A stretch of 64,000 nt of DNA, taken from contig CAJXUC010000001.1 of NCBI GenBank assembly GCA_913061315.1, positions 72,197 to 136,196 of the forward strand. Reading direction: 5' to 3'. This document shows, in pieces, positions 8,671 through 52,767 of this stretch (positions are counted from its first letter, which is position 1; every line of letters starts with the position of its first letter). The stretch is from an uncultured Gammaproteobacteria bacterium (GTDB taxonomy: Bacteria; Pseudomonadota; Gammaproteobacteria; GCA-001735895). The notes beneath the pieces were generated by a model that saw nothing but the letters and a program-made list of their open reading frames with translations, was not told the origin of the DNA and searched no databases. The translations under genes were made by a program, and so were the position numbers.

Positions 8671-8689
8671 TGTTTATATCAACACTGTA

Positions 8690-9743: not shown

Positions 9744-10000
9744 TCAATAGTGCTTGCATGATAACCGCTTCGCCACACTGACATCGTTGAATATCCTGTA
9801 ACAAACGCTGTATGGCGTGAACGATAATTAGACTCCAGACCACTGGCACCAGATTAAAATGAATTAGGTACATTGCGATACGACTTTACTGAGTTCCAGT
9901 AAAGCTGATTTTCATGCCTGCCAGTTGGTCAATCAATGTAGCCCTTTGCTTGTCTTTCTACTTAAGACCTAATTTCAAACCACGTGATTCACAATAATAA
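9705..10000 (-). pseudogene. remnant of TRAP small permease (dctQ-like), overlapping the dctM remnant start
   Basis: Hydrophobic 59-aa fragment (MYLIHFNLVPVVWSLIIVHAIQRLLQ…) ends with an overlap onto the dctM-like ATG, the usual dctQ/dctM junction geometry. Family assignment rests on position only. Confidence 0.3.
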
Positions 10001-10099
10001 TTATAGGTCATAACGTTTTTTCAATGGTTCCCGCAGCAGCGCTTCACTTTTATGGCTATTCAGGAAATGATATTGAGCTGCACGAGATAGAAGCATATA

Positions 10100-10430
10100 G
10101 GCCTAGTTGAGCACGTTTAAATAAGGGGCGCTGAACGCCTAGTTTTGAATCGAGGCAGAAAAAATATCGACAATGCCCTGCTGTGTTTTCTTAACTGAGC
10201 TGGTTTGACCACAAAAAATTGAGTGACTACCAATAATTTCAACTCGTATTTCACCATTCGTAGGGTCTTCCAAATTTTTAGCAAAAAATAATCCACCCTA
10301 TTTTTGAATATCAAGATTGGTTTCATTCAATCTCGAAGCGCCAAACTTCAATTAGAAATTTGGCCCCATAGCATAGCGTTTTTTGCGTTTCAGAATCACA
10401 GTGAGACTCTCCGTTCGGATTTTTGGACAT
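10100..10430 (-). pseudogene. remnant of TRAP DctP-family substrate-binding protein
   Basis: Minus-strand fragment TNGEIRVEIIGSHSIFCGQTSSVKKTQQGIVDIFSASIQN* resembles the DctP N-terminal region (…nGkikvevfp.gqLG.d.e.leal.lGtvDi…). It is truncated by stops; most of the roughly 1-kb gene is missing. Confidence 0.5.
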
Positions 10431-10782
10431 TGATTCTTTCCCTCAATTTAATTTAATGATCGTACAATGTCATTTGTGCCGTTTTCACCTTTTTATAAGA
10501 AGGTAAAGGCAAGGGTTGCCTCTCTACTATTACGTCGAATTTTCACATTTAGACCCACTCAGAAATTGATGCAGATCTATTTTGTTGATACCATGCGTCT
10601 CAGTTTTATACAAAATATAACTTTGAACCTTATATTATTGTTTGAAAACTAATATGTTTGATTAAATTTAACAGTGCGGTGTAACGAATATAGCAACGAC
10701 AAGAGAATCATCTATTTGCCATGGCTGGTTGTTTCGTAACCCAGGCATTGAATAAAGAGAGCATCTAAGAACGAGCACATAA

Positions 10783-13883: not shown

Positions 13884-14139
13884 AAAAAAATTTAAACGAT
13901 AAACAATCAGAAAACGCAGATATAAAGTATCGAGGCTTATTTCTGCTTAAATAATAGGTTTGAATCAATCTATCGTTTTACTACTATCACTCAACGCAAT
14001 AGGCAAACAGAGCCACCTGTGACATTTGCTCAGCGGTTGCTGAATTTTCCCAGCTTTTTTCAAACATTGGATAGAATTTTATTTATTATGGTGATACTTA
14101 TAGTCTCATTTTTACAATTTATGAACATTATTGCAACCA

Positions 14140-14254
14140 AATTACCACTTTTCCATGGAATCATGTCGACTGCCTTCTCCACAATCATGATTGTTGGAGC
14201 ATTGGTTTTGCTAGATAGGGTCTTGGGCATGATCGAAGCATCAATATCACGCAA
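14140..14254 (-). pseudogene. fragment of a GMC-oxidoreductase C-terminus (paralogous to 10783-12390)
   Basis: Minus-strand [35 protein letters not shown]… matches the last ~35 residues of GMC enzymes (VDASIMP…[18 protein letters not shown]). No upstream catalytic body; it diverges into nonsense after ~40 codons. Confidence 0.7.
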
Positions 14255-14777
14255 TCCATTATACCCATCTAAAACCCTGATAAGTGGTCTGTTGAAAATA
14301 ACTGCCCAGTATGTTCAGTTAAAGATTAAAAAGTCCAGTTCCAGCCACGACTAATAGTACTTTGTGCGCCAGATTTCCGGACAGCTAATCTGAAGCCAAC
14401 GAAGGTATGGCCAAGTGGATCGATAAACCCCTCACCAACGTATGTTGCCAATCGACAATACGATAAACCCTTCTAAAATGGACTAAAAAGTCTCTTTTAG
14501 TGATGATTTAGGGCCCTTTTAGTTGATTCTAGTTCTGTATAGCGCCATCAAGTTTGGCTTTTGGGATGCCGGACTGAGACAAAACTTATGTGTATTTAGC
14601 CCTGTCACTCAATCGCAAAAAAATGTAAGATTGGGACTGATAGTCTCATTTTAGCTGAATTTTTTCAGTATGTGGCATTCAACTGGGGCGGAACGCCGGC
14701 CCAGCAAGCTCCGAGGCATCGTCTTCAGCCTCGCGAAGCATAAAATAACGAAGGCTTTCTTAATACGAGGAGTAGGT

Positions 14778-29778: not shown

Positions 29779-29806
29779 ACGTCAAGTTTAAATGGTTAAA
29801 AACGAA

Positions 29807-29834
29807 AGGCGTTCATTGAGCGCCTTTTGTTTAA
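29807..29834 (+). terminator. rho-independent terminator after acnB
   Basis: aaaggcgttca…tgagcgccttt stem followed by TTTTGTTT, about 30 nt after the acnB stop. A second weaker GC hairpin plus T-run lies at ~29896-29925. Confidence 0.6.
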
Positions 29835-30575
29835 CGGCAGTTAAAACAATAAATCAAGATCGTTACTGATGGTAAAGCAGGTTGGAAGGGCGCATCGGTG
29901 ACATGGCGCCTCTTTTAACCAATCCTTCAGAAAAGTCTTTAATGATGCACAAACTGGTACGCATGATTTGTAAGCTATATCCGCTAAAGAATAAAAACGG
30001 AAAGAAGTCTGGATGTAATTAACCATCGAATATGTATGTTTTCATTTTAGTGATTAAACTTTCTACACCTGAATTAGTTGGCCAACCTATATAATCAAAT
30101 CAATTTTAAATTCAGTTAAGCCAATTCAATTCGACCTAGCATTTCTACTGAAAATTTTATTCTAAGGCTAGACTCAGTGATTTTAACTTTTACTTAAAAT
30201 CGGTTAAATTAAAACAACACTCAGTCACATAACGAAACCTTCGAACTAGGCGTGCAACATAGTGCTGAGGGAACAAAAGGGTAGTCGTTTGTATCGCTAA
30301 TGAAACCATTGATGCCATTACACCTATTATCTGGTCGTAGAACATTATTTAAGTCATAGGTACAGCTGATGAAGTAACAGTGGGAAAGATTAATATAAAA
30401 GATGAAACTAATGATGGGCCTCAATTCTCAATAGGCAGTTTCAAATAATTTGGTTATGATTGAAAGTAGTCTTAAAGGTAAACACTGTTTCATACAGGCT
30501 AAATTGGTTTTATATTTGACCAATCAAAGCTGAAGGTAGATGTTTCCTTACTATCAGGTGGATAATATTCATTTT

Positions 30576-31772: not shown

Positions 31773-33158
31773 CTAGCCTGAAAGCTTTTGGTGAACTGTA
31801 TCCAGTGCTAACTGATAGCGGTCAAACATGTCGTTAATCTGCGTTTCAGTTATTATCAGTGGTGGGCAAACACCCACACCATCACCCGGTAACGCACGCG
31901 TAATAAGGCCATGCTGACGCGCGGCAGCCATTACTTGTGCAGCAACTTTGTCACTGGGTGGGAATTGCTCCTTAGTCGATTTATCTTTGACGAGTTCGAA
32001 AGCACCAATTAAACCAATGCCTCGCGCATCACCAACTAAAGGATGCGATCCGAATTCGCCAATACGTTTCATGAACGTTTTAGAAACAGTTCGGACGTGT
32101 TCTAGCATATTGTCATCACGATAGATATTCAAGGTTTCTAGGGCTACCGCAGAGGCTACCGGGTGGCCGCCATAAGTATTGCCGGTCCCAAATACGCCAT
32201 GTGTGTTACTGCCACTAACAAAGGCATCGTACATTCTCTCACTGATCAGAACAGCACCAATAGGTTGATAAGCGGATGATAATTGTTTGGCGCAGGTAAT
32301 CATGTCTGGCTTGATGTTGTAGGTATCACAGCCCCACATGTTTCCAGTCCGGCCAAAACCACAAATGACTTCGTCAGCAACAAACAGGATGTTATGTTTT
32401 TTTAACACGGCCTGTACTTTTTCAAAATAATGGGCGGGTGGAATAAGAACGCCACCAGCACCCATAACCGGTTCAGCGAAAAACGCACCGATCGTATCTG
32501 GATCAGCATCAAGAATTTGCTGCTCAAGCTCATTCACGATGCGGTCGGTAAACTCGGCTTCACTTTCTCCATCCCGACCATTTCGATAATAATGGGGTGT
32601 TTCGCAATGCATCACGTCTATTGCGGGTAAATCAAATCCATTCTGTGCGTAAGGCAATCCAGTTAAGCTACCAGCGGCAACGGTAACACCATGATAAGAG
32701 CGTTTTCGAGCAATCAGGCGCTTCTTTTTGGGTAGTCCCAATGCGTTAAAATAATACCAGACCATCTTGATTGCAGAATCAACGGCTTCCGAACCAGAGT
32801 TAACTAAAAATGCACGGCTAATGCCTTCAGGTGCAATTTCCACCAATCGCTCACTGAGTTCAATGGCGGGTTGGGTCGAACGATGACTGAAAAGATGTGA
32901 ATAAGGTAATTTTTTAAATTGAGCCATTGCTGCATCAACCAAGCGGGATTCACTAAAACCCAACGAGGTACACCAAAGTCCAGACATGGCTTCGACTAGA
33001 CGATTGCCTTTATCATCATCAACATAGATACCCTCACCACCCACGATGGTGAAAGGTCCAAGGTCTTCGTGCCCACTGAGGTTGGTAAAAGGATGAAGAA
33101 CGTACTTCCTATCAGTATCTGCTGAGGTATTAGCTGAATTTGGGGCAGAATTATTCAC
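31773..33158 (-). CDS. class-III (omega-amino-acid:pyruvate-type) PLP aminotransferase
   Basis: Close collinearity with Vibrio-type omega-transaminases by recall (…NSGSEA.D…KMVW…; …FFAEPVMGAGGV…; …DEVICGFGRTGN.WGC…; PLP-lysine context TCAK). The six-frame ORF begins with TTG at 33188; a GTG at 33158 preceded by GGAG is the more likely start. Confidence 0.85.
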   Translation of the reverse strand: MNNSAPNSANTSADTDRKYVLHPFTNLSGHEDLGPFTIVGGEGIYVDDDKGNRLVEAMSGLWCTSLGFSESRLVDAAMAQFKKLPYSHLFSHRSTQPAIELSERLVEIAPEGISRAFLVNSGSEAVDSAIKMVWYYFNALGLPKKKRLIARKRSYHGVTVAAGSLTGLPYAQNGFDLPAIDVMHCETPHYYRNGRDGESEAEFTDRIVNELEQQILDADPDTIGAFFAEPVMGAGGVLIPPAHYFEKVQAVLKKHNILFVADEVICGFGRTGNMWGCDTYNIKPDMITCAKQLSSAYQPIGAVLISERMYDAFVSGSNTHGVFGTGNTYGGHPVASAVALETLNIYRDDNMLEHVRTVSKTFMKRIGEFGSHPLVGDARGIGLIGAFELVKDKSTKEQFPPSDKVAAQVMAAARQHGLITRALPGDGVGVCPPLIITETQINDMFDRYQLALDTVHQKLSG

Positions 33159-33432
33159 GATCAATCTCCGGTTAGTGCAACGAATCAATTTGATCCATCT
33201 GTTGGTAAAATGCGTCAGTTAAATAGACGCCTACTTTACCAGCAGTAAAATTAGCAGGCGGTTTCTGCAAAAGAGACTGCAAGACTTAGAGTATAAAACT
33301 TAAAGGCCCCTTATTCAAAGAATTATAAAAGGCCTGTTTACTAATACCAAATGGGTCAACTCAATGCATATTGGCAAACTGAGTTGAAAGCTATTGAATT
33401 CAATTGACGACTGATTTAGGTAAAAATTATCC

Positions 33433-34641: not shown

Positions 34642-34767
34642 AGTAAGGGACCGTCAATATTTAATTAGTGTGTTAATAAATTGAGCTGGCGTAATACTAG
34701 TTATGCCAGTAGCTTGAGTTGGAAAAGCAAGTGGTTGGCCAAATTAATCTTAATATCAGTCATTTAC

Positions 34768-35853
34768 TCACTCGTTGATTAATGGTTTAAAAGAAGTATT
34801 GATGCGATTGATAATTGTCCAGATAAAGTTGGCTCTAGCCCCGCCAAGAAGGTCTTTAGCTTTGTTGCGCTGCTTTGCTTCGCGTAATTCATAGTCAATA
34901 GCACGGTTAAGATCATGGCCTATATTCAATGCAATCTGACCAGGTCAATATAATCGCAGTTGCGCCATAGTTTTAGACAGTGTGTCGTCATACTAACCGT
35001 GACCCGATTACAAATTTCAAGCAGGCACGGATTTTTACAAGCTGCATCAGAAAAGGTCTCTTCTCGTCTGGTGTCATATCCTGCCAGAACCATCTTGTGC
35101 TTCACGGAGGGCCTCAAGCATGGCGTGCTTGCCATGGCAGCTTGTGTGAAATTTATGTTGTACTGATTCAAAAATATAGTCTGAACTGGGTTCATACCAC
35201 ATTGCCGGTTTATGAGCCTCACTGGCATGCGTTGTAGAAAAGCCCTGAAGCGTATTAATGGTATCTGGGTTGGTGAAAAAACCATCTGCGGTTAGGATGG
35301 CTACCTCAATCCCATTTGAAGCTGCCATATCTGCAGGATAGGGTTTACCCATTGTGCCAAATTGGGCCTCGATGCCTGGATTACGGGTCGCACAAAGTCC
35401 AAGGGCGTGAGTTGTCTGCTCAACACTCAATTCCAGAATTCGACAGGCTACTTCAGAGTCAATCAAACCAGCATCAATAAAATTATCGATCGAATTAAGG
35501 CCTATTTTTTCAGCCGTCGCCATTACAGCTGGTATGACAGCAACGCTCGGATGGCCAAAATTAAGAAAGTGTGTATCGTCGTAATGGAATGGGTGAGAGA
35601 TTGCGCCGTTATAAAGAGCTGCAGCACGTGCAGATAACGTCACCCGACTGCCAATAATACTGGCCTGCGGTGAACCGCCTTCGTCAAGTAGCATTTGGAG
35701 AACGATTCGGCTGACTGGCTCATCACGCCCAACGATAACAACTGTAATCCAGTCTCTTAAAGATAATTCCGCTATCTTACGAGCGCTTTTCGGGGTCAAC
35801 GTGCGTTTAGTGTTAATCGCAAAAGTAGCAATTTTCTGGCTAATACCCATCAA
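34768..35853 (-). pseudogene. MmgE/PrpD-family (2-methylcitrate dehydratase-like) gene interrupted by at least two frameshifts
   Basis: ORF 35074-35853 carries the MmgE/PrpD N-domain (…LSLRDWITVVIVGRDEP…GHPSVAVIPAVMATAEKIG…HKFHTSCHGKHAMLEALREA) and stops. The reading continues in a second frame (ORF 34926-35285) and then a third frame (…IGHDLNRAIDYELREAKQRNKAKDLLGG…* ending ~34768). Confidence 0.55.
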
Positions 35854-40289: not shown

Positions 40290-41093
40290 GTGTCATTACC
40301 CTCCAAACATTACGAAACACTGTTAGTAACTGCTGCAGCAGAACACGTATTGCAAATCACCTTAAATCGGCCTGAATCATCGAACGCGTTTAATACACAC
40401 ATGGCACGTGAGATGATCGAGCTAATTGAAGGGCTTTCACTCGACCCTGAAGACAACCGCTGTATTTTACTCACAGGGGCTGGTGAGCGCGCTTTTTGTG
40501 CCGGTGGTGACTTGAAGGAACGTAAAGGCATGACCGATCAAGACTGGGGCAAACAGCATTTGACATTCGAACGCATGGTGCGCGCCATAATCAATAGCCC
40601 GACCCCGATTATTGCCGTGATTAACGGCGCAGCCTACGGTGGTGGATGCGAACTAGCAGGTGCGGTTGATTTTGCATACGCGTCTGACAATGCACGTTTT
40701 GCACTAACCGAAACCTCATTGGGAATTATTCCAGGCGCTGGAGGTACCCAAACACTGGCAAGAGCAATGGGCGAGCGACGTTGCAAGGAGTTAATCCTTA
40801 GCGCAAAACCATTCAGCGCCACCGAGGCATTGCAATGGGGTCTTCTCAATGCAGTCTACCCACTCGCTGATCTATTACCCGCAGCACTTGGTGCCGCAAA
40901 ACGAATTGCTGCCAACGCGCCCATTGCGGTAAGGCAAGCAAAACAATCGATTCATCGGGGTCTGCAAATGTCTTTAGCCGATGGTCTGGCATTCGAAATA
41001 GAAGCTTATAATCGTACCGTTCCAACTGATGATCGCTATGAAGGTGTGCTGGCCTTCAACGAAAAACGTAAACCACAATTTAAGGGGCGTTAA
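40290..41093 (+). CDS. enoyl-CoA hydratase/isomerase (crotonase superfamily)
   Basis: 267 aa. Crotonase oxyanion-hole segments (…LLTGAGERAFCAGGDLKE…, …IAVINGAAYGGGCELAGAVDFAYAS…) and catalytic Glu context (…TETSLGIIPGAGGTQ…). Confidence 0.88.
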   Translation: MSLPSKHYETLLVTAAAEHVLQITLNRPESSNAFNTHMAREMIELIEGLSLDPEDNRCILLTGAGERAFCAGGDLKERKGMTDQDWGKQHLTFERMVRAIINSPTPIIAVINGAAYGGGCELAGAVDFAYASDNARFALTETSLGIIPGAGGTQTLARAMGERRCKELILSAKPFSATEALQWGLLNAVYPLADLLPAALGAAKRIAANAPIAVRQAKQSIHRGLQMSLADGLAFEIEAYNRTVPTDDRYEGVLAFNEKRKPQFKGR

Positions 41094-41098
41094 TTAAA

Positions 41099-42016
41099 AT
41101 GACGGATCTAGCAACGGTAAGGGAAGTTGGCCTGCGTGATGGACTGCAATTAGTTAAACGCACATTGCCAACTGATATAAAAATTGAATGGTGCCAAACA
41201 CAGGCAGCCTGTGGCTTTAGAGAAATGGAGGTGACCTCTTTCGTGCCACCTAAAGTCATTCCACAATTTGCCGACGCTGAGTCTGTTTTAAAAGCCGCTC
41301 AATCTATCAGCAATATGCGCGCAGCGGTATTAGTACCCAACCTGAAATGGGGGTTACAGGCACTGGATCATGGCGCTAAAAAGATTACCTTTGTATTGTC
41401 AGTCAGTGAAGCCCACAACATGGCTAATGTTAGACGCACTACCGACACGTCGATTGCCGAGTTTTCCGAATTGATTGCTGAACGTAATTGCAGAGGACTG
41501 CAAGACAGCGTGATGATGTCCGTGGCATTGGCCACGACCTTCGGTTGTAGTTTACAGGGTGAAGTAGCCGAACCGCGTGTCTACAATGTTGCCGAGCAAG
41601 TGCTCATGGCTGGCGCGCAGGAGCTCAATATGGCAGACACCGTGGGTTATGGTAACCCTATACAGGTTAAACGAATATTTACTGAAATCTTGCAATTGGC
41701 GGATAAAGTGCAGGTAGCAGCTCATTTTCATGATACCCGAGGCATGGGCCTTGCCAACGCAGTCGCAGCGCTTGAAGCCGGTGTGCGCGAATTTGATGCG
41801 TCGCTTGGCGGTCTTGGGGGCTGTCCGTTTGCGAAAGGAGCCTCTGGCAATATCGCCACGGAAGATTGTGTTTATCTGTTGGAAAGTCTTGGTTTTGCAA
41901 CCGGTATTAATATTCTAGCAATGCTTGAAGTACGCAAAAATCTGAAGGACTGGTTACCCGACGAGCCACTAGAAGGCAAGTTATTAAAGGCAGGTTTAGC
42001 GGCCACGTTTGAATGA
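41099..42016 (+). CDS. HMG-CoA-lyase-like (DRE-TIM metallolyase) acyl-CoA lyase
   Basis: 305 aa. HMGL family (…VREVGLRDGLQ…, …HFHDTRGMGLANAVAALEAG…, …GGLGGCPFAKGASGNIATED…). Starts 6 nt after the crotonase gene. Confidence 0.85.
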   Translation: MTDLATVREVGLRDGLQLVKRTLPTDIKIEWCQTQAACGFREMEVTSFVPPKVIPQFADAESVLKAAQSISNMRAAVLVPNLKWGLQALDHGAKKITFVLSVSEAHNMANVRRTTDTSIAEFSELIAERNCRGLQDSVMMSVALATTFGCSLQGEVAEPRVYNVAEQVLMAGAQELNMADTVGYGNPIQVKRIFTEILQLADKVQVAAHFHDTRGMGLANAVAALEAGVREFDASLGGLGGCPFAKGASGNIATEDCVYLLESLGFATGINILAMLEVRKNLKDWLPDEPLEGKLLKAGLAATFE

Positions 42017-42607
42017 TTTTTAAAACAATTTAGGCGATAAAGATTTTATTTTTTTCTCAAATGCGATGAATTTATCGCAAGAATAATGTCGATGGCTTTA
42101 ATTTTCCAGCGGTGTCGTAAAGTATCAAAAAAATGATTAGCGTGATTATTAATTTTGCAAAATTACTATTTAATTTAGACTAAAAGTGGTTGTTTAGTTT
42201 TTACTCAATCAACCTAACCCAAACATATAAACATGACAAAATTGAATAATACAAAGATTAGATATTCTCATAAAATAGGCTGTCAGTAATAAGGCTATAA
42301 TCTAAGGTTTACTGGGCGGGTAGTTGAGACGTACCCTTTATTTTAGTAATCAGTATAGCCTTCATCTTGACTGCATCCACGCCGTTACGATGCGCTTCTT
42401 TATCTACAGATTGAGAACCCCTCTGTTGGACTCTAAACCATAGTTCTAAAAAACTAGCCCTATTAAATATTAAGCTCAAACCCACGCCTATTAGTGTTGT
42501 GCAATTTGGGTTATAAACTACTCACCATTACACGATAAGGCTTGGAAAATGATTCTTAGCTAAACTAATATTTAATAATTTTCTCTATTGAGTTAGGCAA
42601 TAATTGA

Positions 42608-43150
42608 TGCAGAGGGCAATATCTTTTGACTGGTGGCATTGAACCTTACAAACACATGCGGCCTCCATTAATGGGCAGGATTGCGAGTGAAGATTTTTAT
42701 ATGTTTACTGCAGCAGGCCTTGCTAGTGGCACAGCTACGATAATTGATTTCATTATCCTTGGATCAGAACAATCTTTGATAGATGTCTATCATCAATGGA
42801 TGGACAGGGTAGAAAAGTCGGTCTCAGATTATAGCTTTCATGTTGTGGTAACTTGGTAGAATGATGGTTTTTATGAAGGTATGGGTAAATTCGTCCGTAA
42901 ACATAACTTTAATAGTTTTTAGCATTTTATGGCTTATCAGAATGTTAATATTGCAACTGATGAAACGATGGTGAACAGCTATAGCAGGTCGTTAGAGCTT
43001 GGTGCCTTAATGACAGCTTATGCTGGAAACGGCAAACTTGTGTTCCAGCTACAAAAGAAGGTGTTAGAAATGGACATTACAGGTGCAGAGGGTTATCTAA
43101 TGTCACATAATCCCGAGGTTGAAGGCGAAGTTGCAAAATGTGCCATATGA
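42608..43150 (+). pseudogene. hydantoinase/dihydropyrimidinase pseudogene (N- and C-terminally truncated, frameshifted, catalytic His motif mutated)
   Basis: Two fragments, 42626-42859 and 42929-43150. TGGIEPYKHMRPPLMGR…GTATIIDF…SDYSFHVVVTW aligns with PGGIDPHTHLEMPFMGT…GGTTMIIDF…CDYSLHVAVTW, so PHTH has become PYKH. …LGALMTAYAGNGKLVFQLQKKVLEMDITGAEGYLMSHNPEVEGEVA aligns with …GALVTVHAENGD.I..LQ.KLL..GITGPEGHALSRPPEVEAEA. There is an in-frame stop at 42605, no ATG, and no C-terminal half. Confidence 0.8.
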
Positions 43151-43243
43151 ATTGCATAGACGCTTGATGTAGTTATTTATCTAGCACACGTTTGAACTCA
43201 AGCAGCGTTTGAATCTATAGATAAAAAAATCGGAGAAATCAAA

Positions 43244-44524
43244 GTGAACAAAAATACACTTAATGTTCCAAAAGACGATGTAAATAGGATGTTAAAACCT
43301 GCGATCAATGGTGATCGTCTCTGGGACAGTTTAATGGAAATGGCTAAGATTGGTGCTACTGAAAAAGGTGGCTGCTGCAGATTGGCACTAACTGACCTCG
43401 ACAAGCAGGGTAGAGATTTATTTGTGCAATGGTGCGAACAAGCAGGCTGCACCGTTAAGGTGGATAAAATGGGCAATATCTTCGCACGCCGCGAAGGCAC
43501 CGATTCAAACCTACCTGCCGTATTAACGGGTAGTCATTTGGACACTCAGCCAACAGGTGGCCGCTTTGATGGTGTTTATGGCGTCCTAACGGGACTGGAA
43601 GTCATTCGTTCTTTAAATGACATGGGAATACAAACTCGTCATTCCATTGAAGCCTGTGTCTGGACCAATGAAGAGGGCTCTCGATTTCCACCAGCAATGG
43701 TTGCATCCGGTATTTTTGGGGGCGTATTCGACCTTGATTATGGACTCAATCGAGCCGATCAAAATGGCCTCACTATGGGCCAGGAACTTCAACGCATTGG
43801 TTATGCGGGTGAAGAAGACGTTGGTGGGCGCGAGGTGCACGCTTATTTTGAAGCGCATATCGAACAAGGGCCTATTCTCGAAGTCGAGGACAAGACCATT
43901 GGTATTGTCACCGATGCGCAGGGTCAGCGGTGGTACGAAGTCACGCTCATAGGCGTAGAGTCACACGCTGGACCAACGCCTATGAGTCAGCGCAAAGATG
44001 CCTTGTTAGGTGCAGCAAAAATCGTACAGCTGGTTAATCAAGTGGGGCTGGCTCATGCCCCTCTGGCTTGTGCTACAGTCGGTATGCTCGATGTCTACCC
44101 TAATTCTCGTAATGTCATCCCAGGCCGCGTGGCTTTTACTATTGACTTTCGTCATCCTGACGATGCTATTTTGGAAAAAATGGACCGTCTTTTGCGTGAA
44201 GGAGTTGACAAGGTTGTTTCCGATATTGGGCTCGAATGTGAGTTAGAGCAAATTTTTTATTATGCCCCAATCGCTTTTGACAAGAGCTGTATCGATGCGG
44301 TACGCATAGGTACTGAAGCGTATGGCTATTCATCCCGCGACATCGTGTCGGGTGCAGGACATGACGCTTGCTATCTTGCAAGGGTCGCACCTACCTCAAT
44401 GGTATTTATTCCCTGTATCGATGGCATTAGCCATAATGAAATAGAAGATGTTAAGCCTGAATGGATTACGGCTGGGGCAAATGTTGTCTTGTCAGCGATG
44501 TTGAATAAAGCAGGTATAGCTTAA
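43244..44524 (+). CDS. M20-family amidohydrolase: N-carbamoyl-amino-acid amidohydrolase / beta-ureidopropionase / allantoate amidohydrolase type
   Basis: 426 aa. …INGDRLWDSLMEMAKIGATEKGG…, …GSHLDTQPTGGRFDGVYGVLTGLEVIRSL…, …ACVWTNEEGSRF… is typical of AmaB/AllC-type carbamoylases. GTG start at 43244 with GGAG upstream; alternative ATG at 43289. Confidence 0.82.
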   Translation: MNKNTLNVPKDDVNRMLKPAINGDRLWDSLMEMAKIGATEKGGCCRLALTDLDKQGRDLFVQWCEQAGCTVKVDKMGNIFARREGTDSNLPAVLTGSHLDTQPTGGRFDGVYGVLTGLEVIRSLNDMGIQTRHSIEACVWTNEEGSRFPPAMVASGIFGGVFDLDYGLNRADQNGLTMGQELQRIGYAGEEDVGGREVHAYFEAHIEQGPILEVEDKTIGIVTDAQGQRWYEVTLIGVESHAGPTPMSQRKDALLGAAKIVQLVNQVGLAHAPLACATVGMLDVYPNSRNVIPGRVAFTIDFRHPDDAILEKMDRLLREGVDKVVSDIGLECELEQIFYYAPIAFDKSCIDAVRIGTEAYGYSSRDIVSGAGHDACYLARVAPTSMVFIPCIDGISHNEIEDVKPEWITAGANVVLSAMLNKAGIA

Positions 44525-44605
44525 CTAAAAACTGAGTTTATGAGCATGAGTCAAATACAACTGACGGCGGACATTTAAACGACGCGTCTTAATGCCGACG
44601 AATAT

Positions 44606-44870
44606 ATGAAGGACTTTAGTGACATTCATCTTCCACTTAGTCCAATGGCAGCGCTGATAGAAGCGGGCCGCTGCAATTTTTGTCATGACGCACCTTGCAC
44701 CACTAATTGCCTTACTGGGATCGATGTTGCTGGCTTGATTCGGATGATAAGTACCGAAAACAATATCGGGACGGCCCGTTTGATTTTAGAGGTCAATATT
44801 CTTGGCGGTAGTTGTGCCTGAGTTTGCCCAACAGAAAAACTGTTTGAACAGGCTTGCGTGCGCAATGATT
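44606..44870 (+). pseudogene. N-terminal fragment of a PreT/GltD-like NAD(P)H-dependent dihydropyrimidine-dehydrogenase/glutamate-synthase small subunit
   Basis: …EAGRCNFCHDAPCTTNCLTGIDVAGLIRMI…, then after a stop/frameshift …VCPTEKLFEQACV… gives the Fe-S cysteine cluster pattern of PreT/GltD N-termini. Only about 90 codons; no FAD/NAD domains follow. Confidence 0.5.
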
Positions 44871-45068
44871 AGGATCATCGGCCTGTGAGCCTTGGTTTAC
44901 AACAGTGCCGTGCGGTCGATATAGTGAAGTTGATGCCCGCACCGGGAGAGTTGTAACTAGGAAATATTCCAAATTGTACGACACATGAAAATAATACTAT
45001 GAGAGTGAGTTAACTTTTGATACAACAGCTAGGTAAAAGATAATAGTTATAAAAATTAAGATAGAGAG

Positions 45069-45588
45069 TATGTCTAGCAGTAACAAGATAGTCGAAGTTG
45101 ATGAGTTTATTGAGTTAGATGCTGGAGAAGATGTTACTTCCAGTCGGAGATACGACGTTGATATAGCACCTAAATCCATTACTCAAACTAGAGGTGTAAT
45201 GATAACTGTCTTTTTTAGTGTGGTGTTAATGAGCTGGAAGTTACTTTAAAAGCTAGTGTTAATTGTGTCAGATGTGAATGTCGAAAGGCTTTATTCCAAT
45301 TGGTTGTTAGGTCTATTTGAGTTTATTAGGTCCATCGCTAGGATCATGATTGTTAATTACTTTTCAATTCTTCGTCAGGCGCTTGATTGGACCGCTTTAT
45401 TCAAAGATAAAAGCCTCAGTCCCGTTTGGAACTTGAACGACTTTGTCGCATTTCTGTTTCCAGTTGCGATGACTTTTATCGCGGTAAACACTGGCGCCCT
45501 TAGTCAATTTTACAGTTATGGTTGGTTTACTGGGTTAATACTTGGTGGTTTGATTTACTACGCTATGAATATGAAGGCAAAAATTTAA
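45069..45588 (+). pseudogene. remnant of an NCS1-family (hydantoin/allantoin/cytosine-type) permease with large internal deletion
   Basis: A 59-codon N-terminal piece (MSSSNKIVEVDEFIELDAGED…) and a 110-codon C-terminal piece (…FPVAMTFIAVNTGALSQFYSYGWFTGLILGGLIYYAM…) resemble NCS1 termini. About 300 codons of TM core are missing. Confidence 0.45.
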
Positions 45589-45623
45589 TGGACAATATGG
45601 CAATATTAGATAAGTACACTTAA

Positions 45624-46085
45624 ATGGTATCTTCAATAGCCATTATATTTATAGTGTTTGCGGTGACTGCTGGGGCCATGTTGCCAGTTCAAGGCGTAAT
45701 TAACAGTCAGCTTGGTAAAAGCCTCGATAATGTCATACTAGCAACGTTAATTTCGTTTGTTGTAGGTGGGATAACATTACTAGTTGTGTTTCTTTATCGG
45801 AGTAGTGGATCGTTAGGCATCAGCTTACTGGGCTTAAAAGAAGTACCGCCTATGTTGTACATAGGTGGTGTACTAGGTGCAATTTACGTCACGGCAGTAG
45901 CCGTACTGATCCCAAAAGTAGGTGTTGCAAACACCATGATAGCAGTAATATTTGGACAGGTTCTATTGTCATTATTACTTGATCATTACGGCATTTTAGG
46001 GGTCGAAGTTAGAGAGATTGGTTGGTTTAGAATTTTGGGGGCTAGTTTGGTCTTATTGGGCCTAGTGCTGGTAGTCAAATACTAA
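45624..46085 (+). CDS. small DMT-superfamily membrane protein (YdcZ/DUF606-like, 5 TM)
   Basis: 153 aa with five hydrophobic spans; N-terminal pattern …TAGAMLPVQGVINSQLGK… is typical of the DUF606/YdcZ half-transporter family. Confidence 0.6.
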   Translation: MVSSIAIIFIVFAVTAGAMLPVQGVINSQLGKSLDNVILATLISFVVGGITLLVVFLYRSSGSLGISLLGLKEVPPMLYIGGVLGAIYVTAVAVLIPKVGVANTMIAVIFGQVLLSLLLDHYGILGVEVREIGWFRILGASLVLLGLVLVVKY

Positions 46086-46160
46086 TGGGCTTGCTCAATG
46101 TATGTTGGGAAGGGTTCTAACTATTTAATTTAAATTAAAACAACAAAAGTGGAGAAAAGA

Positions 46161-47168
46161 ATGTCATCAAAAATATCACGTCGTTCATTTACCAAGTTAT
46201 CTGCGGCCTGTGTTGGTGTGCTCGGATTTGGCATGTTTCCGGCACTTGCCAATAATTTTAAAGTAGCGGGGATTTACACCCAGCCTATTCAACAAAAATG
46301 GGATGCTCGATTGCATCAGGCGCTTTTAGCGGCTGAATCAAAGGGTGGCATTGAGTATGTATTTTCTGAAAAGGTAGCCAACACTGACTATATTCGCGTA
46401 CTGCGTGAATATTGCGAAAGTGGTGTCAAACTAATTGTTGGAGAAGCTTTTGGCATTTCAAAAGAAGCGCGTAAGGTTGCGGATGAATACCCAGAAGTTT
46501 CGTTCTTAATGGGCGACCCGTTTGAAGCCCATGGCTCTAACTTTTCGGTATTCGATAATTATATCCATGAACCTTGCTATTTAATGGGTATTATTGCTGG
46601 GTCTATGACCAAAACTAATAAGCTTGGCATGGTGGGTGGTTACCCAATAGGCGAAGTAAATCGTCTTTTCCATGCGTTTATCAATGGCGCTAAATCGGTT
46701 AACTCAAAAATTGAAGTCAAAGTGACTTTTATTGGTTCCTGGTATGATCCACCGAAAGCAAAAGAAGCTGCGTTTGCTCAAATAGAATCGGGTGTCGATA
46801 TTTTGTATGCGGAACGAGCAGGTGTTGTCGATGCTGCAAGAGACAAAGGTATTCTTGCTTTTGGTAATGTGAACGACATGAACAAGGAAGAAAATGGCAA
46901 AGACGTGGTCGTTACATCGGCTTTATGGCATATGGAATCAGCGGTTGCTCACGCTATTTCACGGGTTAAAGCAGGTACATTCTCAGCTGAAAACTATCGC
47001 GACTGGACAATGATGCCAAAAGGTGGCGCAAGCCTCGCGCCATACCATGAATTTGAAAACCGAATTCCAGCGAAAGCCAAGGCAACGGTCGAAAAGCTAA
47101 CGGCTCAAATCCTGACTGGTTCATTTACCGTTGATATAATTGACACAGAGCCTAAGTCATCCTTTTAG
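46161..47168 (+). CDS. BMP-family (PnrA/Med-like) ABC-transporter substrate-binding protein with Tat/Sec signal
   Basis: Start at ATG 46161 (GGAG 9 nt upstream). SRRSFTKLSAACVGVLGF signal. BMP family body (…KVAGIYTQPI…, …GYPIGEVNRLFHAFINGAK…, …DILYAERAGVVDAA…). Confidence 0.8.
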   Translation: MSSKISRRSFTKLSAACVGVLGFGMFPALANNFKVAGIYTQPIQQKWDARLHQALLAAESKGGIEYVFSEKVANTDYIRVLREYCESGVKLIVGEAFGISKEARKVADEYPEVSFLMGDPFEAHGSNFSVFDNYIHEPCYLMGIIAGSMTKTNKLGMVGGYPIGEVNRLFHAFINGAKSVNSKIEVKVTFIGSWYDPPKAKEAAFAQIESGVDILYAERAGVVDAARDKGILAFGNVNDMNKEENGKDVVVTSALWHMESAVAHAISRVKAGTFSAENYRDWTMMPKGGASLAPYHEFENRIPAKAKATVEKLTAQILTGSFTVDIIDTEPKSSF

Positions 47169-47195
47169 TATAGAAATGGACCTACTGTAAAAACC

Positions 47196-48770
47196 ATGTC
47201 GACATTATCTTTTAATCAGATAACTAAACGATTTGGCTCGCTTACCGCTAATGACAGCATTACGCTGTCATTAGGGGATAGTGAGATTATGGCTTTGCTG
47301 GGCGAAAATGGCGCAGGTAAAACCACATTGATGAATATCCTGTTTGGTCATTATGTGGCTGATGAAGGATCGATCGAAATCGATGGCCAAATGTTGCCTC
47401 CCGGTTCTACCGAAGCTGCTATTAAAGCGGGTGTTGGAATGGTTCATCAGCATTTCACTTTGGCTGACAACCTCACTGTCATCGAAAATATTGTATTGGG
47501 TACTGAAAGCTTATGGAACTGGCGGCAGGATATGACAGCAGCCCGGCGTAAATTGGTCGACATGTCTGAAGCCTATTCACTTGTCATCAATCCAGATGCC
47601 TTGGTTGCTGATCTGTCAGTGGGTGAACGCCAGCGAGTCGAAATCATGAAGGCGCTTTACCGTGATGCGAGAATCTTGATACTTGATGAGCCTACGGCAG
47701 TTCTAACACCGCAAGAAACAGAAAATCTTTTTATTACACTAAGGTCTCTGACAGACAAGGGGCTATCAGTTATTTTTATTTCTCATAAGCTGCATGAAAT
47801 TCTCGCTATCAGCGACCATGTGGCTGTTTTACGCCGTGGCAAAATTGTAGGCACCATTCAAACGGTTGATGCTGATCGCAATGGTCTAGCTGAAATGATG
47901 GTTGGTAAAGCTGTCATAAGGCCGCAGCTTGAATCTATGGAGCCAGGTGCTCCAATATTAACTATCAGCGGACTGAGTGCTACTAGCCACGATAAACTGC
48001 CATTGCTGAAGAGTATCGACCTGATTATTCATGCGCATGAAATTATTGGTATTGCCGGTGTTGCTGGTAACGGCCAAGTGGCTCTAGCTGACGTATTGTC
48101 TGGCTTGAACCAGCAGTATTCAGGTGCACTTGAGCTCCATAATGAAACGCTCACTGATGCGGGTCCTTCAGAATTTGTAGCGCGTGGTATCGGACGGATC
48201 CCAGAAGATCGTCATGCGCGTGGCATGATTGGTGATATGGATATTTGGGAAAATTTAATTAGCGAAGATTTACGTTCAAAGCAAGTGTCAAGATGGAAAA
48301 CTATAATCAATAAAAAAGTGGCTATTGACCGGGCCGAACGATTAATAGACAGCTATGACGTCCGTTGTAAAGGGCCGTTAGCACAGACCAAATTATTATC
48401 GGGTGGCAATATCCAAAAACTTATTTTAGCCCGAGCACTCTCTCCTAAACCAGATTTTATATTGGCCAACCAGCCAGTCAGAGGGCTTGACGAAGGTGCT
48501 ATCGCTTACGTGCATGAGCAGTTGTTTGCTGCGCGCAAAAGAGGCGCTGCTATTTTGCTCATTTCTGAAGATTTAGATGAGCTGTTGTCTTTATGTGACC
48601 GTATTGCAGTTATTTATCAGGGGGAATTAAGTCCGGCCCTGCCAGCCTCATCACGAACAGTGACTGAACTAGGTTTAATGATGGCAGGACAAGCAGTGCA
48701 ACCGACACCTAAAAATGAGGAGCTATACAGTTCAGTAAAATTTTCAGCTGGAGGCACTAATGCAAATTGA
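47196..48770 (+). CDS. ABC-transporter ATP-binding protein with duplicated ATPase domains (BMP/nucleoside-sugar type)
   Basis: 524 aa. Walker A GENGAGKTT, signature LSVGERQRVEI, Walker B ILILDEPT, and a second degenerate NBD (…LSGGNIQKLILARAL…). Confidence 0.9.
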   Translation: MSTLSFNQITKRFGSLTANDSITLSLGDSEIMALLGENGAGKTTLMNILFGHYVADEGSIEIDGQMLPPGSTEAAIKAGVGMVHQHFTLADNLTVIENIVLGTESLWNWRQDMTAARRKLVDMSEAYSLVINPDALVADLSVGERQRVEIMKALYRDARILILDEPTAVLTPQETENLFITLRSLTDKGLSVIFISHKLHEILAISDHVAVLRRGKIVGTIQTVDADRNGLAEMMVGKAVIRPQLESMEPGAPILTISGLSATSHDKLPLLKSIDLIIHAHEIIGIAGVAGNGQVALADVLSGLNQQYSGALELHNETLTDAGPSEFVARGIGRIPEDRHARGMIGDMDIWENLISEDLRSKQVSRWKTIINKKVAIDRAERLIDSYDVRCKGPLAQTKLLSGGNIQKLILARALSPKPDFILANQPVRGLDEGAIAYVHEQLFAARKRGAAILLISEDLDELLSLCDRIAVIYQGELSPALPASSRTVTELGLMMAGQAVQPTPKNEELYSSVKFSAGGTNAN

Positions 48771-49812
48771 ACTCCGCGACCACACATCGTTATTGCGAGC
48801 TGGAATGGCACCAATAGCTGCAGTTTTTGCCACTCTAGTCATTTGTTCTGCGTTAATACTCTGGGCTGATGTTCCTGTACTGGAAGCCTATGCTCTTTTG
48901 TTTAAAGGTGCCTTTGGTTCTTCTTTTGCACTTAAAGAAACATTTACTCGTTCGATACCGCTTATGCTCACTGGATTAGCGGTTGCCGTTGCCTTCCGTT
49001 CGAAGTTTTATAACATTGGTGCCGAAGGCCAGCTTTATGCGGGTGCGCTGGCTTCGGTCTACTTTGGTACAGGGTTGATCGATCTACCAGTGTTTATAAT
49101 GGTGCCGTTCTTACTGTTAGTGGGCGCACTGGCTGGAGGTGCGTTGTTGTTGGTGCCGGTATTGCTTAAAACAAAATTAAAAGTAGACGAAGTAGTCACC
49201 ACGTTATTACTCAACTTCGTCATGTTGTTAATGGTGAGTTACTTAATAGAGGGTCCTTGGCGTGATCCAATGGCAATGGGCTGGCCACAAACAGCGTCGA
49301 TAGTGGATAACGGTGTACTACCGGCTTTGCTAACAAAAGGGAGGCTGCACGCGGGACTGATTGTTGCGCTGCTGGCGGCAGTTTTAGTCTGGGCAGTCAT
49401 GCGTTTTACGGTGTTGGGTTATGAAATAAAAGCCGTTGGTTTTAATGCTAAAGCGGCTGAGTTTTCGGGTATCAATGTGAATAAAACAGTAGTCTATACA
49501 GCTTTGATATCAGGTGGTCTAGCGGGTATTGCTGGTGTCAGTGAAGTTGCGGGGTTAAAAGGCTATTTAACACTCGACCTGTCTCCTGGATTTGGTTACA
49601 CCGGTGTTGCAGTTGCGATGCTAGCAAGATTACATCCTCTGTCAGTCGTGCCTGCCGCATTATTCTTATCGTCTATTTATGTTGGGGCCGACTCGATGAG
49701 TCGCGCTGTTAATATTCCTACCTATATTGCGGACGTTTTGGTAGGTGTTTCGGTACTCGCCATTCTTGTCTGTGTTATGTTGACTCAATATAAAATTAGG
49801 TTTCGTCAATGA
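48760..49812 (+). CDS. ABC-transporter permease (BMP-type, first)
   Basis: 350 aa polytopic; its start overlaps the ATPase stop. Confidence 0.85.
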   Translation: MQIELRDHTSLLRAGMAPIAAVFATLVICSALILWADVPVLEAYALLFKGAFGSSFALKETFTRSIPLMLTGLAVAVAFRSKFYNIGAEGQLYAGALASVYFGTGLIDLPVFIMVPFLLLVGALAGGALLLVPVLLKTKLKVDEVVTTLLLNFVMLLMVSYLIEGPWRDPMAMGWPQTASIVDNGVLPALLTKGRLHAGLIVALLAAVLVWAVMRFTVLGYEIKAVGFNAKAAEFSGINVNKTVVYTALISGGLAGIAGVSEVAGLKGYLTLDLSPGFGYTGVAVAMLARLHPLSVVPAALFLSSIYVGADSMSRAVNIPTYIADVLVGVSVLAILVCVMLTQYKIRFRQ

Positions 49813-50756
49813 GTGAACTAATTGATATCTTGCTTACCACGGGCTTTTGGGCAGCAACGATCCGCATTGTTAGTCCACTTATTTTTGGTACTTTGGGAGA
49901 ACTTATTTGCGAGCGTGCTGGCGTTCTCAACCTAGGTATTGAAGGCATTATGACCGTTGGTGCGATGTCTGGCTGGATGTGGGTTTATCAAGGCGGTGAT
50001 CTTTGGGGTGGCGTTTTATTTGCCGCCAGCATGGGTGCACTGTTTGGCTTGCTTCACGCAACCTTCACGGTTCACTTGTGTTTGTCGCAGCATGTTACGG
50101 GCATAGGGATTACATTGTTTGCTTCATCGTTGAGCTATTTCGTTTACCGCATGTTGTTACCATCGGCGACCACACCACCTAAAATTGAGCCATTTCAAAA
50201 TTATCCAATACCACTCTTGTCTGATATTCCAATGGTAGGTGAAGCCCTATTTAATCAATCACCACTCACCTACCTTGCGCTACTTTGTGTCCCAATTGTT
50301 TGGTATATGCTTCACCGAACCCCTATCGGCTTAGCCGTTCGCATGGCAGGTGAAAATCCTGTCGCGGTCGAGGCTCAGGGCATTAACGTACTAGCAGTTC
50401 GTACCGGTGCCGTAATGGTTGGCAGTGCATTGATGGCAGTTGGTGGTGCCTTTATAACCATGTCGTGGTTTGATGCCTTTTATTTTGGGATGGTCAATGG
50501 GCGCGGCTGGATATGTGTGGCTCTGGTTATTTTTGCTTCTTGGAAACCCGGCAAAGCATTACTTGGTGCATTACTATTTGCCGGATTAGAAGCCATGCAA
50601 GTACGCGCTCAATTGTCTTCTGGGACAGTCATTCCCTATCAGTTTTTTCTCATGCTGCCCTATGTCATGTCGATTCTAGCAATGATCGTAATGGCCAGAA
50701 AAGCCAAATATCCACAGGCGTTGTTAGTACCGTTTAGACGTGGTGAAAGAGTTTAG
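49809..50756 (+). CDS. ABC-transporter permease (BMP-type, second)
   Basis: 315 aa polytopic; 4-nt overlap with the first permease. Confidence 0.85.
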   Translation: MSELIDILLTTGFWAATIRIVSPLIFGTLGELICERAGVLNLGIEGIMTVGAMSGWMWVYQGGDLWGGVLFAASMGALFGLLHATFTVHLCLSQHVTGIGITLFASSLSYFVYRMLLPSATTPPKIEPFQNYPIPLLSDIPMVGEALFNQSPLTYLALLCVPIVWYMLHRTPIGLAVRMAGENPVAVEAQGINVLAVRTGAVMVGSALMAVGGAFITMSWFDAFYFGMVNGRGWICVALVIFASWKPGKALLGALLFAGLEAMQVRAQLSSGTVIPYQFFLMLPYVMSILAMIVMARKAKYPQALLVPFRRGERV

Positions 50757-51216: not shown

Positions 51217-52113
51217 TCGCTATGTTTTAAAAAGCCTCTGAAAATAATGCAAGAGGAGATAGTGACGCGCATTGAATCGATTAAAAGCGGTAAGTTTTGT
51301 TAGAAATTAAAGATGCGACGCTCTAATAAAGCAGAAAAAAAGTAGCCGTTAAACTTCATCGAATAAATGGGTTCGGTTATGAGTTATGCTCACTTTATTC
51401 GTACAACAAGCCTTTCAAAACAACATCAATTAGAGTTTTTTTGCTTCTTCAATAAGCCTTATCTGACAAGGGCTGACCATTATTAAGCACATTGTTCGGC
51501 GTACTTAAATCTGCGTAGTGCTGGGTTGAGGCCCAGATCATATAAAGAAGATAACGCGGATGTACCGGCCGCAACATACCTCAGTCGATCCAGCTTTGAA
51601 TCTGTTTTTCACGAGATTGGCACCATTCAAGCAGGTGACTTTCCATGTAGTCACGCATCGTGACTGATTTCGTTGGCCCAAACTTTCCACCCGTTTGGAC
51701 GACTGCGTGATAACGCCATTTTAGCGCTAATAAAAGCGTTGAGGGCTTCTTGAGGATCATCATGGTCATCAAATTGATCGGCGGCTTTTAATCATACGAG
51801 GAATACGTCATCTTAGCGCCCTGAAAACCACAAGTAGCAAAGACGAATTCAGCAACCCAAAGAATAAATTTTTCACCTCGCCTTCGTCGCTTTGCATTGC
51901 TCGTTGGAGAGATTTCTTCAGATTGAGTACGTTTAACATCCAAGGCGATTATCCTCGCTGGTTATCTATACTTAACTTTAATAGAGATGGGGATATTGAC
52001 AGTAGAGAGACTATAATAAGGTGTTTAAATTCAAGTGATCAGTCTGACAAATTCATTTCATATAGATTAGAATTTGTATCACGAAGTGAAAAACTAAAAC
52101 CTGAGAGACATTT

Positions 52114-52767
52114 ATGAGCCACAAAGTCCATCTGATAGACCACCCTTTGATCCAACATAAACTAACCCTAATGCGTCAAAAAAATACGGCTGCCGCAGAG
52201 TTCAGAAGGCTTTTAAAGGAAATTAGCTTATTGGTTGGATACGAAGCCACGCGCGATTTAGCAATGACAACCAAGGTAATTGACACGCCACTTGAAGCAA
52301 TGGAAGCCCCTATTTTGGCGGGCAAAAAAATGTGCTTCTTTTCAATTTTGCGGGCAGGAGAAGGGCTTTTATCTGGATTAGAAGAGTTAGTACCTTCTGC
52401 CAGAATTGGCCATGTTGGGCTCTATCGTGACCCCGTAACATTAGAGGCCATTGAGTATTACTTTAAAGCCCCTGCAGATCTTGAGCAACGGCTTTGCATC
52501 GTGGTAGACCCAATGTTAGCGACCGGACATTCGGCGTCCGCTGCTCTGACTAGAATTAAAGGTGCAGGTGCTAAAAACATTCGTTTTATTTGTCTATTGG
52601 CTGCTCCTGATGGTATTCAAACACTCAAGGAAGACCATCCAGATGTGCCTATATACACGGCTTCTTTGGATCGAGAGTGCAATGAGAAAGGTTATATTTT
52701 GCCCGGCTTAGGTGATGCTGGAGATCGATTGTTTGGAACTCGTTCAGGCAGTATAAAAAAGAAATAG
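52114..52767 (+). CDS. upp: uracil phosphoribosyltransferase
   Basis: 217 aa. Collinear with E. coli Upp by recall (…HPL..HKL.LMR…, ILRAG…, PRPP motif [13 protein letters not shown], …YTASLD…[12 protein letters not shown]…FGT). Confidence 0.92.

Follow-up and report, generated by a model that had tools for sequence, protein, structure and literature searches.

Between an HMGL-like gene (ending at position 42016) and a YdcZ-family gene (starting at 45624), a 64,000-nucleotide stretch of DNA from an uncultured Gammaproteobacteria bacterium (contig CAJXUC010000001.1, positions 72,197 to 136,196; the window, meaning the whole stretch analysed) holds the wreck of a reductive pyrimidine-catabolism operon, which spans 42017-45590. 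The only long open reading frame (ORF) on the plus strand between the two genes encodes an N-carbamoyl-amino-acid amidohydrolase of the M20 family (referred to here as M20), and the DNA flanking it has 33-40% G+C, as compared with 46-51% within it. The remaining features are fragments of a dihydropyrimidinase gene, of the genes for the dihydropyrimidine dehydrogenase subunits PreT and PreA, and of a gene for an NCS1-type permease; beyond them lie intact genes for transport, deamination, and pyrimidine salvage, and a dead regulator (Table 1). An original prediction made from the DNA alone had described a decaying hydantoin or reductive-pyrimidine utilization locus in which only the carbamoylase survives, and profile searches and alignment to relatives found each of the elements it listed in the place it had assigned to them.

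Table 1. Features of the decayed locus and its 3′ flank in the window. L091 is a comparison locus with an intact operon; D2 and D3 are deletions described in the text.
Feature	Position	Strand	State and evidence
Upstream spacer remnant	42017..42603	+	Homologous to L091 6638-6987 and 7170-7464, 69-74% identity
Dihydropyrimidinase pseudogene fragment	42614..43237	+	Residues 48-255 of 479; five in-frame stops
M20 ribosome-binding site, GGAG	43232..43235	+	8 nt upstream of start; spared by D2
M20 N-carbamoyl-amino-acid amidohydrolase	43244..44524	+	426 aa, uninterrupted
PreT (NAD-dependent dihydropyrimidine dehydrogenase subunit), N-terminal stub	44546..44920	+	Residues 1-125 of 447; Fer4_20 E = 1.8e-21
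PreA, last ~28 codons with native stop	44921..45013	+	Fused in frame to PreT stub by D3
NCS1 permease remnant	45070..45588	+	Residues 1-39 joined in one frame to 345-485 of 486
YdcZ-family membrane protein	45624..46085	+	Intact in the window
Bmp/PnrA-type ABC transporter (binding protein, ATPase, two permeases)	46149..50756	+	Intact; downstream of operon in all relatives; dN/dS 0.02-0.10
CMP/dCMP-type zinc deaminase, 149 aa	50767..51216	+	Intact; identical protein in 243 assembly-collection blocks
RutR-like TetR-family regulator pseudogene	51398..51958	-	Frameshift, stops, part of helix-turn-helix deleted
Uracil phosphoribosyltransferase upp (pyrimidine salvage)	52114..52767	+	Intact; 268 bits vs cut-off 114

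The fragments aligned significantly to dihydropyrimidinase, PreT-type, and NCS1-type family models. The dihydropyrimidinase remnant is a single reading frame without a frameshift, with stops at 42857, 42920, 43148, 43157, and 43193. It matched positions 46-250 of the 454 in the TIGR02033 profile (E = 1.4e-41) and residues 48-255 of the 479-aa orthologue in the relative L007 (63% identity, E = 2.5e-84), so that both its start and its C-terminal half are missing, as had been proposed; a Pfam search with the fragment gave no match. The altered metal site was also borne out, as the remnant reads GGIEPYKHM where intact relatives have GGIDPHTHM, changing the HxH motif to YxH. The PreT stub, expected from its iron-sulfur domain and recognized here by the Fer4_20 model, is interrupted by stops at 44576, 44819, and 44870 and runs into the end of PreA, a part of the locus identified by blastn (window 44916-45170 aligned to L091 13873-14124) and by a translation that ends in CTTHENNTMRVS followed by a stop and matches the PreA C-terminus. 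The two ends of the NCS1 permease that had been reported matched Transp_cyt_pur and allantoin-permease models (E = 1e-5 to 2e-9); a stop at 45247 interrupts the joined frame. Like pseudogenes, these remnants are homologous to genes that are intact in relatives, carry disabling lesions, and have accumulated substitutions in a neutral pattern. Of the parts of a functional pyrimidine operon, intact PreT and PreA, a dihydropyrimidinase with its HxH motif, and the promoter, regulator, and dedicated permease (NCS1 residues 40-344 are missing) are all lost; a decarbamoylase is present as the intact M20, the other candidate, a CN-hydrolase, having been deleted.

Intact versions of the operon, between the same flanking genes as in the window, are present in the close relatives L007 and L091, and the comparison with relatives that the original prediction had called for thus gave a clear result: the fragments are what is left of a pathway that was lost. 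(Comparison loci carry L-numbers; the identity of their M20 to that of the window is 91% for L007, 94% for L091, 94% for L003, and 87% for L097/L098.) The gene order of the intact operon is CN-hydrolase (288 aa, AguB-like), dihydropyrimidinase (479 aa; 594 bits against the TIGR02033 equivalog model), M20 (426 aa), PreT (447 aa), PreA (434 aa), and NCS1 permease (486 aa), followed on the 3′ side by YdcZ, the Bmp-type ABC transporter, and the small deaminase, with a TetR/RutR-like regulator on the opposite strand. The operon was also complete in all three further lineages located by way of the Bmp binding protein. Among the matches listed (∼170 loci in many Proteobacteria), dihydropyrimidinase, PreT, and PreA are the usual neighbours of this group of M20 orthologues. 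Many close relatives of the window M20 come from marine and saline metagenomes, and the best match among species-representative genomes is 83% identical.

Because of these usual partners, and because of its closest solved relatives, which include PDB entry 8c46, we assign reductive pyrimidine catabolism as the ancestral function. The reductive-pyrimidine half of the proposed label therefore stands, and the hydantoin half does not: the cluster of the intact relatives carries PreT and PreA and contains neither a hydantoin racemase nor HyuA/HyuB, and a hydantoin utilization (hyu) cluster was rejected on these grounds. By gene content, the pathway is the reductive pyrimidine (PreT/PreA) route, with nothing hydantoin-specific. 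The same ancestral gene content (PreT/PreA, dihydropyrimidinase, beta-ureidopropionase, and NCS1) is found in the reductive pyrimidine clusters of Paraburkholderia, Azospirillum, Halomonas, and Thalassospira, whose M20 falls in the same group of orthologues (65-77% identity, linked in dozens of genomes). The window differs from these clusters in that only the M20 gene, intact by sequence, would still work, and the marine relatives differ in carrying an extra AguB-like CN-hydrolase in the operon, which Paraburkholderia-type clusters lack.

The description of the carbamoylase as an intact 426-aa enzyme with start signals proved accurate. Its frame is uninterrupted and begins with a GTG codon, as in five of six orthologues compared (the sixth has ATG), 8 nt downstream of the GGAG element. 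M20 scored above two curated cut-offs (NF006769, 681 vs 452 bits; TIGR01879, 422 vs 204 bits) and matched PF01546 (E = 2.3e-26) and, weakly, PF07687; it has a Peptidase_M20 catalytic domain with an inserted dimerization domain above cut-off, together with the conserved metal-binding, catalytic, and carboxylate-binding residues. All 152 columns conserved in at least 98% of 274 homologues are kept in the window and are likewise unaltered in L003 and L097, and among these conserved family columns we found no active-site change that would point to a new specificity; the re-use for another ureido substrate suggested in the original prediction is conjectural. The motifs GSHLDT, NEEG, HIEQG, NSRN, GAGHD, and ISHNE are present, and the residues read directly are H98, D109, E143-E144, H205/Q208, R289, H373, and H397; their equivalence to Glu131, Gln196, Arg291, and His385 of 8c46 was assigned by motif matching, not by structural alignment. 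The closest solved structures are the M20 carbamoylases 5thw (E = 1e-203) and 8c46 (E = 5e-152), which are of the same family and length as the window enzyme. The 8c46 enzyme, from Rhizobium radiobacter, prefers N-carbamoyl-beta-alanine but also acts on various linear N-carbamoyl-L-amino acids (PMC10952681). From its likeness in sequence to 8c46, M20, whose own pathway partners are gone from the window, is predicted to hydrolyse N-carbamoyl-beta-alanine or N-carbamoyl-L-amino acids. A more distant, eukaryotic relative, the beta-alanine synthase of Saccharomyces kluyveri (PDB 1r3n, E = 1e-85), is an M20-type third enzyme of pyrimidine degradation that differs in working within a complete pathway.

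M20 is under purifying selection inside a dead operon. Between the window and L003, a related locus that shares part of the damage, the gene has 55 synonymous and 27 non-synonymous differences (dS 0.218, dN 0.028, dN/dS 0.127; Fisher p = 4e-19 against equal rates). Since intact neighbouring genes gave similar ratios for the same pair (0.02-0.12), M20 is not noticeably relaxed. Its differences fall 13:11:58 by codon position, a distribution that departs from that of the adjacent remnant (p = 2.7e-7), where allele-private changes in the dihydropyrimidinase fragment are even across positions (16:18:10), as neutral evolution would give; between two intact orthologues the figures are 8:1:56. Changes in the remnant run from G/C to A/T 73 times and in the reverse direction 27 times, and its G+C fraction is 0.40 as compared with 0.47-0.49 in intact orthologues. 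At the density of stops in the remnant, the 426 codons of M20 would be expected to contain 10, and the probability of finding none is 3.6e-5. Polymorphism gave the same picture in a population sample of 11 sequences chosen through the deaminase gene, without reference to M20. Here no indels were seen in M20, and its 8 segregating sites change 6 codons synonymously and 2 non-synonymously, for a density of 0.62%, lower than the 1.78% of three remnant stretches (p = 0.002) and similar to the 0.42% of other intact genes (p = 0.36). The claim that the carbamoylase has been kept by selection and not by chance is thus upheld by substitutions, by the expected stops, and by polymorphism, and because selection holds the gene while its operon decayed, M20 probably has a use that is independent of the pathway.

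Relative to L091, four deletions (D1-D4) together removed about 5 kb of the operon. D1 (1.19 kb, with the junction repeat ATAA) took the promoter, the whole CN-hydrolase gene, and dihydropyrimidinase codons 1-47. D2 (0.71 kb, with no evident repeat) took the C-terminal half of dihydropyrimidinase and ends ∼25 nt 5′ of the M20 start. D3 (2.2 kb, junction repeat TCGA) extends from PreT codon 125 into PreA, of which it left the last ∼28 codons, and produced the in-frame join of the two, and D4 (0.93 kb), which lies between two ATAGCGCC repeats, took NCS1 residues 40-344. A smaller deletion of 0.18 kb removed part of the upstream spacer. In this spacer, the stretch at 42312-42603 (L091 7170-7464) is 74% conserved between loss and intact loci, and a 58-aa minus-strand ORF is called there in many contigs; this ORF had no family or Rfam match.

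The promoter removed by D1 is a sigma-70-like site, TTGACC-18-TAGTAT, located ∼120 nt upstream of the CN-hydrolase gene (L091 7468-7497). It was the sole promoter-like site found there by a scan, and it is conserved in seven diverged loci (L091, L007, L092, L095, L097, L189, and L190). Because the site begins 4 nt inside D1, the window has no native promoter for the operon. No convincing terminator was found on the plus strand between the upstream operon and M20 (42017 to 43244).

The regulator has been lost as well; its decay, like the loss of the promoter, the CN-hydrolase gene, and nearly all of PreA, was not part of the original prediction. The RutR-like pseudogene lies 6 kb downstream of the wreck within the ORF-free interval 51217-52113. 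Its TetR_C_3 domain is divided between two frames (E = 2.5e-19 and 1.9e-10), and it was also aligned with the intact orthologue in L190. The gene is intact in L091 and L190 and is a pseudogene also in L003 and L097. The best family match of the intact L190 orthologue is TIGR03613, the family of E. coli RutR (YcdC), a uracil-responsive TetR-family regulator with the same TetR_C_3 domain; its score of 170 bits is below the family cut-off of 368, and it differs from RutR in adjoining a reductive (Pyd) operon and not the Rut operon. Matches to the E. coli RutR box at the locus were at chance level only, and this candidate was set aside.

The decayed architecture recurs in other assemblies. The window M20 protein (P0130) is recorded in 117 assembly-collection blocks, and all 8 of the long contigs shown with an identical M20 protein carry the wreck. 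So do all 10 contigs from ten samples that were picked through the identical deaminase, each with a 426-aa M20. No locus lacking M20 was found among the three lineages reached through the Bmp gene and these ten contigs, a small sample.

L003 has the same D1 junction as the window and different later lesions, with frameshifts where the window has nonsense codons. It retains the C-terminal half of dihydropyrimidinase and has 1.1 kb of 36% G+C DNA (L003 11473-12566) in place of the region from PreT codon ∼54 through to the Bmp gene; this replacement DNA had no similarity to any part of the cluster. When substitutions in the remnant were polarized with two intact orthologues, 89 were common to the window and L003 and ∼20-24 were private to each, the two alleles being ∼14% diverged there. 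Because most substitutions are shared, we conclude that dihydropyrimidinase died before the two alleles split, by about twice the time that has passed since they separated. The loss allele is therefore old, and it is fixed in an abundant population. The earlier description of a snapshot of pathway loss stands in that a pathway has been lost and one enzyme retained, but the loss is not a fresh one.

Outside 40400-43300 the window flanks share 95-99% identity with those of L091, which has the intact operon, and AcnB is 99% identical. This identity implies that loss and intact alleles occur side by side in one recombining, species-level population. The remnant lies at much the same distance from every intact orthologue (73-75% nucleotide identity, dS 0.9-1.3), as compared with a dS of 0.25 to L091 for the adjacent M20, a gap that would be explained by an old allele whose functional neighbours have been homogenized by recombination.

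A second, young decay of the same operon was found in L097/L098, whose closest intact relative is L095. This decay is independent, and M20 is again intact. Its lesions are a frameshift in the CN-hydrolase gene, a stop at dihydropyrimidinase codon 18 together with a change of HTH to HKH, lesions at the start and C-terminus of the NCS1 gene, and two stops and one frameshift in the RutR-like gene; in addition, PreT is frameshifted, and a deletion has joined it to PreA. The pseudogenes are barely relaxed (dN/dS 0.08-0.15 vs 0.07 for M20). Because the decay is so recent, we dropped this case as independent proof of M20 retention; it is consistent with selective retention, not significant, and too young. 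The CN-hydrolase decayed both times and M20 did not, which hints, from two events only, at a CN-hydrolase that served the pathway as its dedicated decarbamoylase and at a wider role for M20.

The same Thr-to-Lys change in the HxH motif (HTH to xKH) occurs in the window (42644-42652, shared with L003) and in L097 (about 8677-8685). A shared recombination tract was rejected as its origin, since only 1 of 10 L097-private changes nearby is shared, and the two occurrences are therefore a parallel coincidence.

Taken as a whole, we consider it probable that a RutR-type-regulated pyrimidine operon decayed at this locus while M20, kept by selection, came to act as a stand-alone enzyme. The ancestor, as comparison with relatives shows, had a RutR-type-regulated operon for reductive catabolism of uracil and thymine beside a nucleoside/nucleobase salvage block of Bmp ABC transporter, deaminase, and upp. 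D1, a deletion between short repeats, was the founding step, removing at once the promoter, the CN-hydrolase gene, and the start of dihydropyrimidinase. The other catabolic genes and the regulator then decayed neutrally through A+T-biased substitutions, stops, and deletions, with the salvage block remaining intact and M20, with all its catalytic and substrate-binding residues, held by selection. M20 would now remove the carbamoyl group from N-carbamoyl (ureido) amino acids that do not come from the cell's own PreTA and dihydropyrimidinase; candidate substrates are imported N-carbamoyl-beta-alanine or N-carbamoyl-L-amino acids, from which the amino acid, NH3, and CO2 would be released. Transcription of M20 may run on from the HpcH/ECH/HMGL-like operon upstream (read-through) or may start at a cryptic promoter within the A+T-rich remnant, and the loss allele probably coexists and recombines with the intact allele within one species-level population. 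A more specific version is possible, although we would not put it above a tentative suggestion: a "beta-ureidopropionase" role without dihydropyrimidine dehydrogenase or dihydropyrimidinase, either in harvesting nitrogen from plankton-released ureido amino acids or in clearing carbamoylated amino acids, with the gene rewired into the upstream acyl-CoA/organic-acid operon and the loss allele persisting as a long-lived polymorphism beside the intact operon.

Several observations weigh against this account. A scan of the plus strand upstream of M20 (42017 to 43244) found no sigma-70-like site. The dedicated NCS1 permease is dead, and our search for literature on free ureidopropionate in seawater yielded nothing usable. 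By the Nei-Gojobori method the remnant has a dN/dS of 0.42, not 1, probably because the method neglects transition bias and base-composition drift. In L097/L098 the chance that M20 would escape the ∼7-10 lesions is P ∼0.2-0.3, which undercuts that case as a replicate. M20 itself is a mosaic, with codons ∼72-284 grouping with L091 and both ends with the loss allele L003, and finally the visible genome is only 64 kb. The last point leaves room for redundancy, in which a second working set of PreTA and dihydropyrimidinase (or hydantoinase) without a decarbamoylase of its own would be located elsewhere and served by M20. Such an arrangement would fit the lack of any sign of changed specificity in M20, and stand-alone M20 orthologues also occur in other genomes, where the pathway genes may be elsewhere. 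However, no second copy is present within the window, and the losses also take in the RutR-like regulator, the dedicated permease, and the CN-hydrolase as alternative decarbamoylase, a pattern that looks like loss of the whole function and not of one copy; we therefore regard redundancy as unlikely.

The mosaic structure implies that recombination with intact-operon strains contributes to the condition of M20, and recombination alone might be proposed to explain it, with an unselected M20 in loss-allele cells being overwritten from co-occurring strains whose flanks are nearly identical. We consider this improbable, as recombination without selection cannot keep M20 free of stops and indels in 11 of 11 genomes while 2.3 kb of adjacent DNA accumulates both, and independent deletions in the window and L003 have trimmed both sides of M20 and spared the gene and its ribosome-binding site. 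That M20 is simply a pseudogene in waiting is plausible for L097/L098, given the chance of escape there, but for the window allele it is contradicted by the missing stops, by the codon-position distribution, and by the low dN/dS, and we give it very little credence. The idea that the genes are in reality intact and only misassembled or missequenced is contradicted by 18 long contigs, assembled independently and drawn from many samples, that carry the same lesions, and by the distance of the remnants from intact genes, which amounts to 25% of bases in addition to the kilobase deletions; we discount it almost entirely. Nor is there a counter-example in L187, which seemed to have a truncated M20 with the rest of the operon intact: the truncation is a 100-N scaffold gap, and this locus was rejected.

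The stand-alone retention of M20 belongs to a known kind of event, in which a pathway decays and its genes are retained to different degrees, and it is well documented here. Loss of dispensable functions in free-living bacterioplankton, and reductive genome evolution more generally, proceed through short-repeat deletions and A+T-biased decay and leave coexisting strains with and without a pathway; compared with such cases, the window is distinguished by the sparing of one gene in a decaying operon after loss of both promoter and regulator. The in vivo role of L-carbamoylases is debated, and the survival of M20 would be natural-experiment evidence that the family has a role outside pyrimidine catabolism. 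For annotation, pipelines would count this organism as partly pyrimidine-degrading through its "3.5.1.6/3.5.1.87" gene, although the pathway is dead. For ecology, strains with and without uracil catabolism would coexist and recombine in one abundant marine population, a situation that bears on niche partitioning for dissolved organic nitrogen. The locus also offers matched natural alleles, of the window type and the L091 type.

Relatives of M20 occur in other surroundings as well. Orthologues of ∼70% identity (L033, L049, L058, L063, L072, L124, and L133; from Motiliproteus, Balneatrix, Marinobacterium, Halopseudomonas, and metagenome-assembled genomes) lie directly 3′ of a luciferase-like oxidoreductase gene, and the ∼5 kb upstream of M20 in the L033 group has, by eye, F420-biosynthesis-like genes (CofC/CofD/CofE-, FbiC-, and Npd-like) instead of pyrimidine genes. 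At L071, L111, L139, and L141, M20 adjoins an EamA-type transporter gene. Within the window, ∼10 kb upstream of M20, an intact omega-aminotransferase gene of the PRK06105 type (31773-33188, minus strand; 663 bits) encodes an enzyme that could in principle use beta-alanine, the predicted product of M20.

Among the genes flanking the operon, the YdcZ-family gene is frameshifted in L091 (15520-15967), where the operon is intact, and is absent from L003 and L092, so that it seems to be dispensable and to have been lost independently. No rRNA, tRNA, or Rfam matches were found in the window. An interval of 2.1 kb (8671-10782) has no ORF longer than 72 aa and gave a faint, below-threshold match (E = 0.009) to the C-terminal end of a TRAP DctM permease; a further decayed gene may lie here. 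ORFs are also sparse at 7066-7842, 13884-14669, and 29779-30539. An MmgE/PrpD-family gene (34642-35853, minus strand) has only part of its N-terminal domain left and encodes 259 aa, as compared with 440 aa in L007; in L003 this gene is shorter still, and a GcvT-family gene is also truncated. These truncations suggest wider gene decay in the lineage.

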